A stretch of 64,000 bases of DNA from Candidatus Bathyarchaeota archaeon (GCA_005884195.1 VBBP01000044.1:27151-91150); one strand, 5' to 3'; positions 31,783-36,132 are shown, counted from the first letter of the stretch. The notes: generated from the sequence alone by a model not told the origin. Numbers and translations are program-made.

Positions 31783-32256
31783 TTACCCGCGTATTCTCTC
31801 GATGCTGAGCGGCTTCAGTTTCCCCTCAAGCCATAAGCCTGCATAGTTCTCTTCCCGTGGAACCCACTCTAGCTTAACCCGGCCTAACTTCTTGCTAGAG
31901 TCCCTCGCCTCCTCGCTCAGCTCGATGAGTTTGGAATCCTCAACCCGCCATTCTCCATTGACCTGGTTCACCACGAGCTGAGAGTCCGAACGAATCAAGA
32001 TCTCACCGATGCCACCTTGGATTCTTCCAGTTGCTTTGTCTGCCCACCGCTCCGTGATCAGCGCTAGTGCCTTGAGCAACGCGTAGTACTCTGCCTCGTT
32101 GTTAGTCCTGTCTCCAATAGGCTGCCAGTAGATCCTGAACTTGCCAGGCTCGATCGTATCGGACGAGTCCGCGTAGGCGATCGCAATCCTCGCATTTCGA
32201 GGCAGACTATTCTGCTCGTTCCCCCGACTCTCCCCATCGATGTAGAAGATCGGCAA
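31783..32256 (-). CDS. rnhA: ribonuclease HI (RNase H type 1)
   Basis: 157 aa. YIDGESRGN (first Asp), TNNEAEYYALLKALA (Glu), IRSDSQLVVNQVNGEW (Asp) and a C-terminal region consistent with RNase H1 catalytic residues. Confidence 0.75.
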   Translation of the reverse strand: MPIFYIDGESRGNEQNSLPRNARIAIAYADSSDTIEPGKFRIYWQPIGDRTNNEAEYYALLKALALITERWADKATGRIQGGIGEILIRSDSQLVVNQVNGEWRVEDSKLIELSEEARDSSKKLGRVKLEWVPREENYAGLWLEGKLKPLSIERIRG

Positions 32257-32284: not shown

Positions 32285-33892
32285 TTAGAAGGTCCAGCCG
32301 AACATCTTCATGATAAACGGCGTAACATCAGCCTCGATCAAGCCCGCTATGAAGAAGAGCGGTGCAAGCCCTACGACAACGTAGACAGCCAGCCTCATAG
32401 TTTTTGAAAGGTACGCATCACTTTCCGGCCCAGGTCGAAACTTGGTCTTAAGAGCCGCATATCCCAGTCTCATCCCAGCTGATCCTGCCAAGAGAAACGA
32501 TGGAATCTCGATAATTCCATGCGGCAAGATAGCCGCAGAGAACATTGTCAAGCTCGGCGAGAGCTGTGGACCCACCAGAACTCCAAGCGTGAAACCTGTG
32601 AACATTATCGAGATGAAGCTTGGAGCCGCGAACCCCAGCCCGGAAAACGCAGTTGCAAAAGAGACGAACCAATTGTTGAGAAAAATAGCGACGCCGTCAA
32701 CGGGTGTCGCGGCCGTAAACTGTCGGAAGTCAGGGTTGCCGTGTCCTGGTTGAGCGCCAAGGCCCAAGAGACTGCTTCCCACCCCGCTAACAGACACGTT
32801 GTAACCTAGGTAGATTCCTATAGCAAGAGCTGCAAAAGATGCAGCATGAAAGGGAAGATTTCTAGGTCCAACAACAAACCTAAGCCCTTCCCCTAGCCCA
32901 GCTCTAATCTTAAGCCAGACTGCACGCGGCAACCTACGCATTACATCTCGCCAAATGAGGTTGGAGATCTGGAACGGGGTCTCCCTAACCGACTGTCCTG
33001 CGTGGTAGTATATCATCGACTTTGTCAGGTGAAGGATCGGCGTTAGGATGAAGCTCAAGGTCACCACGATGAAGGCCGTTGAAAGTGAAGCCGCCACTCC
33101 TAACCCGTTCGCCAGGTAAGTAACGAGGAGGAGAAGACCTTGGAATATGATTCGGACAATCGAGTAGGTCAAGGTGAGCCCGAGATTGTGGCTTGCAACT
33201 CTGAAGCTCCGGCGGACGGCTCCCATGCCAGAGGCCCCATCCACAACTACTGCAGGGTACGAGTACACAGTGAACACAGACAATATTAGAGATGCAAAGA
33301 AGAGCGGTTGAAACGCGTAGGAAGCGGCAAGAAGTGCAACCACTCCTGCTGGACTGTTTATGTTCGCGAGCGAAGCTACTATCAACCCGAGACCTATCGC
33401 TGCAGGACCCCAGGTAACAAGGTTCGAGACTAGCAGAGTCCACGCCATCGACATCCACCTCCTGGAGCCATTAGATACAACTGCAGAGATTGGGATGCTC
33501 TCGCTGTTCCAGGCTTCCAAGTATGTTCCATATTCGGAAGAGTAAACCCAGCCTCCTCCCAGAAGCGCGACAAGAATCAGTGCGACAAACACTCCTGTTG
33601 ACAACGGTATGTTCGTGAACCAAAACGCGGGGTTCAGAAGAACGCCTAGCAATCCCCCTGACCTCGAGCTGATCATAGCGGCGAAGAGTCTTGCCAGCTG
33701 AGTGTCTGCAGGCTCACTGATGAGGAGAAGCATCACAGCCAGAGTTATGACAGACTGAAGAATGAGCGATAGCCCACTCTGGAGCATTGACGGAACTATG
33801 ATTGCCGGATGTTTCCTCCAAGTCCAATAGGATCTAAGAAAGATCCTGTCAAAGAAGATCCTCTTCAGACCGAGGAGTGCGTTTCTTGACAT
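32285..33892 (-). CDS. large polytopic membrane protein with C-terminal DUF95/SpoIIM-like domain
   Basis: 535 aa, at least 12 TM. The C-terminal third (...ILPHGIIEIPSFLLAGSAGMRLG...FFIAGLIEADVTPFIM) matches the stage-II-sporulation-protein-M/DUF95 signature (ilPHGiiEipa...liEAfvtp). Confidence 0.55.
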   Translation of the reverse strand: MSRNALLGLKRIFFDRIFLRSYWTWRKHPAIIVPSMLQSGLSLILQSVITLAVMLLLISEPADTQLARLFAAMISSRSGGLLGVLLNPAFWFTNIPLSTGVFVALILVALLGGGWVYSSEYGTYLEAWNSESIPISAVVSNGSRRWMSMAWTLLVSNLVTWGPAAIGLGLIVASLANINSPAGVVALLAASYAFQPLFFASLILSVFTVYSYPAVVVDGASGMGAVRRSFRVASHNLGLTLTYSIVRIIFQGLLLLVTYLANGLGVAASLSTAFIVVTLSFILTPILHLTKSMIYYHAGQSVRETPFQISNLIWRDVMRRLPRAVWLKIRAGLGEGLRFVVGPRNLPFHAASFAALAIGIYLGYNVSVSGVGSSLLGLGAQPGHGNPDFRQFTAATPVDGVAIFLNNWFVSFATAFSGLGFAAPSFISIMFTGFTLGVLVGPQLSPSLTMFSAAILPHGIIEIPSFLLAGSAGMRLGYAALKTKFRPGPESDAYLSKTMRLAVYVVVGLAPLFFIAGLIEADVTPFIMKMFGWTF

Positions 33893-34772: not shown

Positions 34773-35594
34773 CTAGATTGGGGGTGGTGCAGGAATCGGG
34801 GCTGGAGACAGTGCGGCAGACAGCTGAGCCATGATTGTGTCCTCCATCAACATTTGTTGTTGGAAATGGTTGTTAGGGTCAGTGACTAGCACGTAGACCC
34901 AATAGACCCCGAAGATGCTTCCGGTTATCAGGGTCAGGACAAAGTAAAGCGCAAAGCTTCTTTCTGGTATCGGCGGGTTTCGGTAGGGGAAATTCATCGG
35001 AACTCCCAGAGCATTAAAGGTTCGAAGCATGTCGTTGATGAATAGATCTTCTCTCCTCTCGTGTTTGAAGAAGTCCTTCATGAGGAAATAGCCGGCGTAA
35101 AACCAGCCGAACGGGCCGATGATCGCGTATAGGGTTGCGTTCTTCTCCATTTGTTCAAGCCGCGTCTCTTTCACGCTTCTGTCCATGTTGTTAAGGAGAA
35201 TTGAGATGTCAATACCCTTCTTCGCCGCGAGCTCCCTGGCCATGCTCACTGCGTCTTCATAGAGGAGAATCTGCCGGTTGAAGTGGGTGTTGCGACGACT
35301 CACTAGTTTGAAGACCAAAACGGAGACCAAGACGAGCACGATGAAATAAGTGAGATATGAGAGAATTAGTGCCCCAAATAGAGCTACAATCAACGGTCCT
35401 ATTGTTGTGATTGTGGAATTTGTGGGGGTGGTGGTCCGAGGAATGCTGGCTATTACCGCGAAAAGGATTATGGTTGCCGCTATTCCCCCGATAATAGGGA
35501 GTAATGGAACAATCGCCCAGGCGCCTGACATGTGCTTGTCGCTTTCGAGCCGCGTTCGAAGATCACGCCTCAGGTTCTCAAGTGGGATGCTCAA
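34773..35594 (-). CDS. 4-TM membrane protein, paralogue of 33893-34747
   Basis: 273 aa. See the paralogue. Pro-rich C-terminal tail. Confidence 0.45.
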   Translation of the reverse strand: MSIPLENLRRDLRTRLESDKHMSGAWAIVPLLPIIGGIAATIILFAVIASIPRTTTPTNSTITTIGPLIVALFGALILSYLTYFIVLVLVSVLVFKLVSRRNTHFNRQILLYEDAVSMARELAAKKGIDISILLNNMDRSVKETRLEQMEKNATLYAIIGPFGWFYAGYFLMKDFFKHERREDLFINDMLRTFNALGVPMNFPYRNPPIPERSFALYFVLTLITGSIFGVYWVYVLVTDPNNHFQQQMLMEDTIMAQLSAALSPAPIPAPPPI

Positions 35595-35717
35595 GATTGT
35601 GACTCCTCTGAAATCGGGCAGGCATCGATTTTTCTATTTAAGACAATAGAATGTCTCTCATTTCTGCTTGTGCAGTCGGGAAAGCCTCGCTCATCGGCTC
35701 TTTGGCTTGCTCAGTCT

Positions 35718-35724
35718 TTAAATG
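35718..35724 (+). promoter_or_regulatory. TATA-box-like element TTTAAAT upstream of the tRNA gene
   Basis: Located 28-34 nt upstream of the tRNA 5' end (35752), the expected archaeal TATA position. Confidence 0.4.
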
Positions 35725-35751
35725 ACCCGGGCCTTTTGGGGTTCGATTTGT

Positions 35752-35873
35752 GCGGCCGTGGTCTAGCCTGGTCTATGATATCAGCCTGCCATTGCTAGGC
35801 TTAGCAGAACGCTGACGACCCGGGAAACCGCCTCAACAGCGGTTCGGGAATTCAAATCCCGGCGGCCGCACCA
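35752..35873 (+). tRNA. tRNA-Gly (anticodon GCC) with two introns: an 18-nt intron at the canonical 37/38 site and a 26-nt intron in the T-arm (53/54). Genomically encoded CCA.
   Basis: Acceptor stem GCGGCCG (35752-58) with CGGCCGC (35863-69), 7/7 bp, A73, CCA. D-arm GTCT-AGCCTGGTCTA-TGAT. Anticodon stem TCAGC (35781-85) with GCTGA (35811-15), 5/5 bp. Loop CTGCCA|C with a hairpin-forming intron TTGCTAGGCTTAGCAGAA. T-stem CCGGG (35820-24) with CCCGG (35858-62) and T-loop TTCAAAT after removing the hairpin insert AAACCGCCTCAACAGCGGTTCGGGAA. The spliced length is exactly 75 nt plus CCA. Confidence 0.7.
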
Positions 35874-36132
35874 TCAACGATGGACCTGTTTGTGAGATTG
35901 TCTTGATTCGAGCAAATTCGATTAGAGTCCCATGCTGTTGATTACGTTTGCAGAGTTTCCGTCCAAAACAAGGATAATCTTGTCGCCTTTTCGTATCTTG
36001 ACGACCTTATCGAAATATGCGACAGCTCGGCGTCGGAACAGACCTCCTCAGAAGATAGCGCAGAACTCCTCTCCAATGCCCACATCTGCTCAGAAAAGTA
36101 GATATTCGCCAGATTGAATCTCAAACACTTCA

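Follow-up and report, generated by a model that had tools for sequence, protein, structure and literature searches.

How a locus of 122 nucleotides could give rise to a working tRNA, and to which one, is the question raised by positions 35752-35873 (plus strand) of the window, i.e., the whole 64,000-nucleotide stretch of archaeal DNA that was analysed. The locus begins with GCGGCCG and ends with CCA, and it is very probably a functional tRNA-Gly(GCC) gene of soil Bathyarchaeia that is split by two bulge-helix-bulge (BHB) introns. Exon 1 (35752..35791, +) covers tRNA positions 1-37 and includes the acceptor 5' strand, the D arm, the anticodon stem 5' strand, and C32 U33 G34 C35 C36 A37. It is followed by intron 1, TTGCTAGGCTTAGCAGAA, which is 18 nt long (35792..35809, +) and lies at the canonical position 37/38 with a relaxed BHB of the hBH/BHL type. 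Exon 2 (35810..35824, +; tRNA positions 38-53) carries C38, the anticodon stem 3' strand GCTGA, the variable loop CGAC, and the T-stem 5' strand CCGGG, and it adjoins both of the other exons in intron-less relatives. Intron 2, AAACCGCCTCAACAGCGGTTCGGGAA, is 26 nt long (35825..35850, +) and lies at the non-canonical position 53/54 with a strict hBHBh' motif. Exon 3 (35851..35870, +; tRNA positions 54-73) supplies the T loop TTCAAAT, the T-stem 3' strand CCCGG, the acceptor 3' strand CGGCCGC, and the discriminator A73; the terminal CCA is read in the sequence at 35871..35873 (+) and is genomically encoded.

When the 18 and 26 nt are taken out, 78 nt are left, and ARAGORN calls them as tRNA-Gly(GCC). 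The cloverleaf drawn for this product has a 7-bp acceptor stem, 5-bp anticodon and T stems, A73 as the discriminator, the T loop TTCAAAT, the anticodon loop CTGCCAC, and the terminal CCA. The initial annotation had given the same T loop, the anticodon loop CUGCCAC, and a length of 75 nt plus CCA, all of which agree with the ARAGORN product, but its statement that all stems are perfect has to be corrected, as in the ARAGORN drawing of the D stem U13 and U22 are mismatched and G10 and U25 form a wobble pair. The junction defined by the BHB motif produces the loop CUGCCAC, in which GCC occupies positions 34-36. The acceptor end of archaeal tRNA-Gly is typically A73 with G1:C72, C2:G71, and G3:C70, and that of the present gene is the same as in intron-less tRNA-Gly(GCC) genes from metagenomes.

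Such intron-less genes were reached by scanning metagenomes for CGCTGACGACCCGGGTTCAAATCCCGGCGGCCGCA, the junction predicted after splicing, and at least 120 contigs matched; among the matches listed, most of the metagenome contigs carry a fully intron-less tRNA-Gly(GCC). The most similar of the matches listed, GCGGCCGTAGTCTAGCCTGGTCTAGGACATCAGCCTGCCACGCTGACGACCCGGGTTCAAATCCCGGCGGCCGCACCA, is identical to the predicted mature tRNA at 72 of 75 positions. This variant occurs in at least 11 contigs, differs only at three positions of the D arm, and is uninterrupted at either junction. The intron-less relatives have a 4-nt variable loop and read CCTGCCACGCTGA, i.e., the anticodon GCC. The canonical cloverleaf of the spliced product is thus backed by the ARAGORN call and by the 72/75 identity, and the glycine (GCC) identity first proposed for the gene is borne out by the spliced sequence and its intron-less orthologues together.

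Archaeal splicing cuts after the second nucleotide of each bulge, and this rule is consistent with both introns, when so removed, yielding a perfect tRNA. The BHB spans the exon-intron boundaries, where a 4-bp helix stands between two bulges of 3 nt, one on each strand (PMC6379350). For the strict form, hBHBh', the definition cited in PMC7714728 asks for two or more Watson-Crick pairs in both outer helices, whereas the relaxed hBH, HBh', and BHL motifs are cleaved by the (alpha-beta)2 and epsilon2 endonucleases (PMC6379350). The hand-built structures of both introns have the BHB geometry. In intron 1, the central helix is formed by C32UGC35 (35786-35789) with GCAG (35804-35807, intron nt 13-16), and it is flanked by C36 A37|U (35790-35792) as the 5' bulge and by A A|C38 (35808-35810) as the 3' bulge. 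Its exon-side helix is the anticodon stem, and its intron-side helix consists of merely one U:A and one G-U pair, which places the motif among the relaxed hBH/BHL forms and outside the strict one. In intron 2, C48CCG51 (35819-35822) pairs with CGGG (35845-35848, intron nt 21-24), and the bulges are G52 G53|A (35823-35825) on the 5' side and A A|U54 (35849-35851) on the 3' side. The intron-side helix has 6 bp, AACCGC (35826-35831) with GCGGTT (35839-35844), and the exon-side helix has 2 bp, G45 A46 (35817-35818) with U55 C56 (35852-35853). Intron 2 is hence a strict motif, with A46:U55 and G45:C56 on one side and 6 bp on the other.

These structures alter part of what had been expected. The initial annotation proposed a relaxed motif at the T-arm junction and named the lack of any plausible BHB at 53/54 as grounds for refutation; folding finds a motif at this junction, so that objection falls, but it is the T-arm motif that is strict and the anticodon-loop motif that is relaxed. 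Likewise, the CGGGAA shared by the intron end and the flanking exon had been taken as a repeat typical of relaxed motifs, and this does not hold, as CGGG belongs to the central helix, whose intron strand it forms, and AA lies in the bulge and varies in relatives.

Local folding energies place both BHB folds no more than about 1 kcal/mol from the optimum (intron 2, -13.6 vs a minimum free energy, MFE, of -13.7 kcal/mol; intron 1, -9.8 vs -10.7 kcal/mol). The whole 122-nt precursor has an MFE of -53.3 kcal/mol in a fold which is not a cloverleaf, whereas BHB or cloverleaf-like folds reach about -34 to -37 kcal/mol, so that about 16-20 kcal/mol separate the BHB conformers from the more stable MFE fold. 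Since the precursor MFE is not tRNA-like, co-transcriptional folding or protein binding must pick the productive fold. The MFE fold joins intron 1 (GCTAGGCT) to the D arm (GGTCTAGC). This pairing was considered as a meaningful feature and set aside, as it is absent from orthologues with intron 1 AGCGTTCA, and it is probably incidental.

The strongest evidence on intron 2 is from its relatives. Species-representative genomes scanned with the pattern CCGGG-N(12-42)-TTCRAATCCCGGCGGCCGC gave 75 loci, mostly in metagenome-assembled genomes (MAGs) of soil Bathyarchaeia/Bathyarchaeota, and in 58 of the 75 a tRNA-Gly with the anticodon GCC or UCC is genuinely interrupted by an insertion between G53 and T54. 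The hosts of the 58 genes are mostly Bathyarchaeia, along with three Jordarchaeia, two Micrarchaeota, and one Aenigmatarchaeota. All 58 follow one template, namely A or T, a helix of 3-14 bp with a variable loop, CGGG, two variable nucleotides, and T54, with AGGG in place of CGGG in two genes; the invariance of CCGGG and the 3' exon among them is imposed by the search pattern. The AA of the 3' bulge appears as AG, AC, CG, or AT in relatives.

An alignment of 49 distinct sequences from genes with the 53/54 intron (A1) has 98% of cells paired in the proposed structure of intron 2. The intron-side helix covaries, as expected under selection on structure: double-sided changes occur in all six pairs (for example, G:C in 31 sequences vs A:U in 18), compensatory cells number 88 against 22.8 expected, none of 500 shuffles reaches the observed score, and the signal collapses when the partners are slid by 1-3 columns in either direction. 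RNAalifold, run on A1, independently finds the same helix. On the T-arm segment, RNAalifold pairs the intron CGGGA with U60-G64 and not with C48-G51, and the intron CGGG could equally pair with C61-G64, the T-stem 3' strand. With the exons fixed, in part by the search pattern, the central and exon-side helices of intron 2 show no variation, and C48-G51 is hence the modelled partner of CGGG on the basis of BHB geometry and the product rather than of covariation.

With the same geometry in 58 genes and a covarying helix, the second intron stands at 53/54 as first annotated. The accompanying remark that T-arm introns are rare and lineage-restricted does not fit, as one scan gave 58 such genes in this lineage and 53/54 is an already published non-canonical position (PMC4090602). 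The 53/54 intron is a long-lived feature common to tRNA-Gly(GCC) and tRNA-Gly(UCC).

Intron 1 has its own set of relatives. Among the genome and metagenome matches listed, there are 38 distinct 37/38 introns in tRNA-Gly(GCC), and every one (38/38) has a 4-bp helix with C32-C35, whose intron strand is GCAG, GCGG, GTGG, or GTAG, followed by two nucleotides and C38. The changes in this central helix are wobble only, central helices being unable to covary because their exon strands are fixed, and the intron-side helix ranges from 0 to 4 bp among the 38. The proposed insertion at the canonical position 37/38 is therefore supported by its BHB geometry and by its retention in these relatives.

Other arrangements occur around these two positions. 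The soil Bathyarchaeia genomes of L007, L060, L026, L034, and other loci also have a tRNA-Gly(UCC) with a homologous 53/54 intron (for example, L060 at about 528-650); within one genome, the UCC and GCC introns are identical at about 21 of 26 positions, and the differences are compensatory. The second intron of the UCC gene has as its central helix the D-stem 3' strand GGAC with GTCC, which gives a splice site at 27/28. An extra D-loop intron brings the number to three in L019, L069, and L074, while the tRNA-Gly of L014 has two introns, in the D loop and at 53/54; the genes with D-loop introns (L019, L074, L069, L014) reach lengths of up to 128-176 nt. Archaeal intron-bearing tRNA-Gly genes of the same type as in Bathyarchaeia are also found in L015 and L059 (JAJPJY01 'bacterium' Centralia_MAG_577) and in L041 and L068 (DASPWZ01 'Dormiibacterota'), and these bacterial-labelled MAGs are probably mislabelled or contaminated bins.

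Conservation around the gene was measured in 22 close orthologues that have both introns. Their exons are 99.5% identical, with three distinct sequences, while intron 1 exists in 17 versions and intron 2 in 18. Within intron 1, the last 6 nt are 95% identical vs 56% for the first 12 nt. The flanks are far less conserved (47% identity in the 25 nt upstream and 28% in the 25 nt past CCA). By comparison of these sequences, the exons and the splice-adjacent nucleotides are under strong purifying selection, and the recurrence of the gene with both intron positions in many genomes is far beyond chance. CCA is kept in 21 of the 22, and the encoded CCA first annotated at the end of the gene is confirmed. 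The upstream TATA-like TTTAAAT, proposed at about 30 nt from the gene, is present at 35717-35723 (-35 to -29 from the gene start). It is part of a putative archaeal promoter element, CAGTCTTTAAATGA (35712..35725, +), kept upstream of the orthologues and found at equal distance from the gene in about 20 of them despite the roughly 47% identity of the near upstream sequence. This supports the TATA-like box first proposed, which may act as the promoter. In tRNA-Gly(UCC) genes, a different shared element, AATCGTAAGGCAGAAAAGA, is seen about 25-45 nt before the gene instead of TTTAAAT (L007, L026, L027, L034, L037, L047, L048, L060, and others).

Synteny around the gene is conserved. Between 32.5 and 40 kb, the window matches, at 96.2% identity over 7.5 kb, L065 (VBBQ01000038.1), which belongs to Bathyarchaeota isolate BA_22, a soil genome assembled from a metagenome, and the neighbourhood is recognisable in about ten other loci at 65-82% identity. 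Archaeal proteins are encoded around the tRNA gene (Nep1/EMG1, RNase P Rpr2, PDCD5-like, and GcvT-like). On the upstream side of the tRNA, all on the minus strand, are an RNase H-like protein (RVT_3/RNase_H; 31783-32256), a SpoIIM-family membrane protein with DUF7847 (32285-33892), and a DUF4234 membrane protein (34773-35594). No integrase adjoins the tRNA among the window ORFs at 31.8-40 kb, and no second copy of the tRNA 3' exon exists in the 64-kb window, exon 3 being single-copy.

The gene is easily overlooked. ARAGORN reports no tRNA in the 64-kb window and, when run with intron options on the precursor, does not recover the tRNA-Gly(GCC) gene; Rfam over the whole 64-kb window gives nothing at the gathering threshold nor at E<=1. 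The view that standard finders would miss the unspliced gene is hence upheld by both tools. When the Rfam search is confined to 35650-35980, the tRNA family RF00005 scores 30.5 bits (gathering 29; E=1.2e-4) in a match that spans 35752-35870 and model positions 1-71, end to end, with insertions of 20 nt in the anticodon loop and 33 nt in the T loop. As the whole-window scans were blind to the gene, they are little informative on other disrupted tRNAs, and an intron-tolerant motif scan was therefore written, with the T loop, an acceptor complement, U8, A14, and GG as its criteria. The gene at 35752-35873 was its sole match in the 64 kb. Self-splicing group I and II introns have a catalytic core of hundreds of nucleotides; the present inserts have only 18 and 26 nt and no Rfam intron match, and no such core was found in them. 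tRNAscan-SE 2.0 in archaeal mode looks for non-canonical introns by default (PMC8450103).

Several other readings of the locus have to be weighed against the two-intron gene. The 26-nt insert might be retained in an unusual tRNA with AACCGC/GCGGTT as a long variable arm and a T arm shifted to CGGGA with U60-G64. The RNAalifold result from the 49 sequences lends itself to this, as it gives a pseudo-T hairpin, CGGGA/UCCCG with the loop AUUCAAA, next to the covarying hairpin, and in the motif scan TCGGG, located 2 nt upstream of the T loop, also came up as another T stem. Yet such a tRNA would have either G65 unpaired between the T and acceptor stems or a 9-nt T loop, its loop would change from UUCAAAU to AUUCAAA, and CCCGGG of the exon would be left single-stranded. 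Assignment to class II was considered on this ground and rejected, because what the fold provides is a 9-nt T loop or else a CGGGA/UCCCG stem with G65 unpaired. Moreover, tRNA-Gly belongs to class I and the intron-less relatives have a variable loop of four nucleotides, the exact 3-nt/4-bp/3-nt spacing of the BHB is seen in 58 of 58 genes, and the nucleotide next to the loop varies freely (A, G, C, T). Retention of the insert is therefore very improbable. The same low standing is given to a decaying pseudogene with two insertions, the working tRNA-Gly(GCC) being elsewhere in the genome. Although the silence of the standard finders would suit a decayed gene, decay is hard to reconcile with exons that are 99.5% identical in 22 syntenic orthologues beside flanks at 28-47%, with insertions that show compensatory changes and a fixed BHB geometry, and with a conserved promoter box and CCA; in addition, no scanned genome gave a second copy with the 53/54 intron.

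Two further readings are less credible still. With the T-arm intron alone removed beforehand, ARAGORN in intron mode calls tRNA-Cys(GCA), for which intron 1 is placed 2 nt further 5' (CATTGCTAGGCTTAGCAG). This placement forms just two of the four central-helix pairs and breaks the anticodon stem. Cysteine tRNAs carry U73, whereas the discriminator here is A73. The intron-less relatives read GCC, and all 38 relatives fit the splice sites of Gly(GCC). The cysteine isotype is thus scarcely tenable, and an alternative isotype, which the initial annotation had held up as a possible refutation, fails on the BHB geometry and the intron-less orthologues. The chance is equally slight that the 26-nt insert is an insertion or excision scar of a mobile element with CGGGAA as a target-site duplication. 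CGGGAA does stand both directly before the insert and at its end, and the tRNA-Gly genes of relatives are integration targets; however, the duplication is unconserved (AA is replaced by AG, AC, CG, or AT), the insert has been kept with compensatory changes in dozens of species of several phyla, and in size and structure it matches a BHB intron but none of the known elements.

For the two-intron tRNA-Gly(GCC) gene, a splicing pathway can be proposed in which transcription, cleavage, ligation, and their order are drawn from established knowledge of archaeal tRNA splicing. The conserved TTTAAAT box, some 30 nt before the gene, would direct transcription. Within the precursor RNA, C32-C35 of the anticodon loop would pair with GCAG close to the 3' end of intron 1, and C48-G51 with CGGG close to the 3' end of intron 2, which would block the T stem; the stem is unable to form before intron 2 is removed because the BHB of this intron occupies C49-G51. 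Each exon-intron pairing would create a 4-bp helix flanked by two 3-nt bulges, and the endonuclease EndA would cut after the second nucleotide of each bulge and release introns of 18 and 26 nt. An RtcB-type ligase would then join the three exons, with 5' processing by RNase P. The T stem CCGGG/CCCGG would form after the removal of intron 2, and steps that depend on the T loop would be possible only then. The expected product is a 75-nt class I tRNA with CCA already present. A broad-specificity EndA, (alpha-beta)2 or epsilon2, is required for relaxed motifs and non-canonical positions (PMC6379350), and the relaxed intron 1 and the non-canonical intron 2 would predict an enzyme of this kind, which is typical of TACK archaea (PMC7714728, PMC6379350).

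The position of the introns also bears on the use of tRNA genes as integration targets. Among the matches listed, 15 of 113 evaluable intron-less relatives are 3' fragments of tRNA-Gly(GCC) that start in the anticodon loop, as against none of the 58 T-arm-intron genes (Fisher p=0.003), a comparison heavily confounded by habitat, database, and lineage. In L076 and L095, the segment is present a second time a few kb away from the fragment (48-123 and ~3317-3368 in L076, where the copy is part of a full gene; 24-58 and 6357-6391 in L095), and an integrase ORF runs into the fragment. The integrase of L095 matches Pfam Phage_integr_3 (archaeal phage integrase, 1.7e-32), and that of L076 has the SAM-like N-terminal domain of phage integrases. 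Further target-like loci are L078, L089, L096, L101, L107, L126, L129, L139, L143, L183, L188, L191, and L192.

The two introns of the window interrupt exactly the segment that serves as the attachment site in these relatives. According to the proposal of Randau and Soll, as summarised in PMC4090602, introns shield tRNA genes from integration. It is conceivable, though rather unlikely, that the introns have been kept as a heritable integration defence, with the attachment (att) stretch of about 45 nt from the anticodon loop to CCA cut in three. In these sequence comparisons, a protective role would be a matter of correlation only. If the defence reading were true, its corollary would be the old 53/54 intron that is common to the GCC and UCC isoacceptors and has an equal position in Bathyarchaeia, Jordarchaeia, and DPANN genomes.

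Crenarchaeota, Nanoarchaeota, and Thaumarchaeota are already known for introns at 53/54 and for tRNA genes that hold two or three introns (PMC4090602, PMC8450103), and multi-intron tRNAs are likewise described for archaea in PMC6379350; in the literature searched, no description of tRNA introns in Bathyarchaeia was found. The closest likeness is with Thermoproteales (Pyrobaculum, Thermofilum, Caldivirga) and other Crenarchaeota, which also have short BHB introns at the canonical position as well as at non-canonical ones. In their multi-intron genes, the splice sites are likewise 3-nt bulges around a 4-bp helix, 53/54 is among the listed positions, and up to three introns per tRNA gene are described according to the summaries in PMC4090602 and PMC8450103 (Marck and Grosjean, 2003, and Sugahara et al., 2008). 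The present host differs as a mesophilic soil Bathyarchaeia, and its 53/54 intron is long-lived and not one of many recently transposed. Thaumarchaeota share with it a mesophilic host of the TACK lineage and a number of non-canonical introns whose detection requires a dedicated BHB model (PMC8450103), the clade-specific one of tRNAscan-SE 2.0 (PMC8450103), although the host here is of a different archaeal class. Similarly, the introns that disrupt the attB sites of SSV in Sulfolobus (Randau and Soll, 2008, as summarised in PMC4090602) lie inside the att stretch bounded by the anticodon loop and the 3' end, whereas here two introns split this stretch into three and protection is correlational only. 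Outside archaea, tRNAs of nucleomorphs and nuclear tRNAs of Cyanidioschyzon merolae have protein-spliced T-arm introns, sometimes plus a canonical intron, with BHB-like motifs as determinants, as is the case here (PMC4090602, PMC3728597); these hosts, however, are eukaryotic, their endonuclease composition is different, and some of the introns have only 3 nt.

The gene is thus a well-supported further example of a known archaeal structure and is not mechanistically new, so that knowledge of how such introns work is unchanged. With it, the range of multi-intron tRNA genes interrupted in the T arm comes to include an abundant mesophilic soil lineage. The genes with the 53/54 intron form a large natural collection in which BHB introns covary while their non-canonical site stays fixed, and this lineage along with its intron-less, targeted relatives forms a natural comparison for testing whether introns protect against the integration of mobile elements. 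The gene decodes GGC and GGU and is overlooked by common finders, and soil Bathyarchaeia MAGs would seem to be without tRNA-Gly unless an intron-aware archaeal mode is used.
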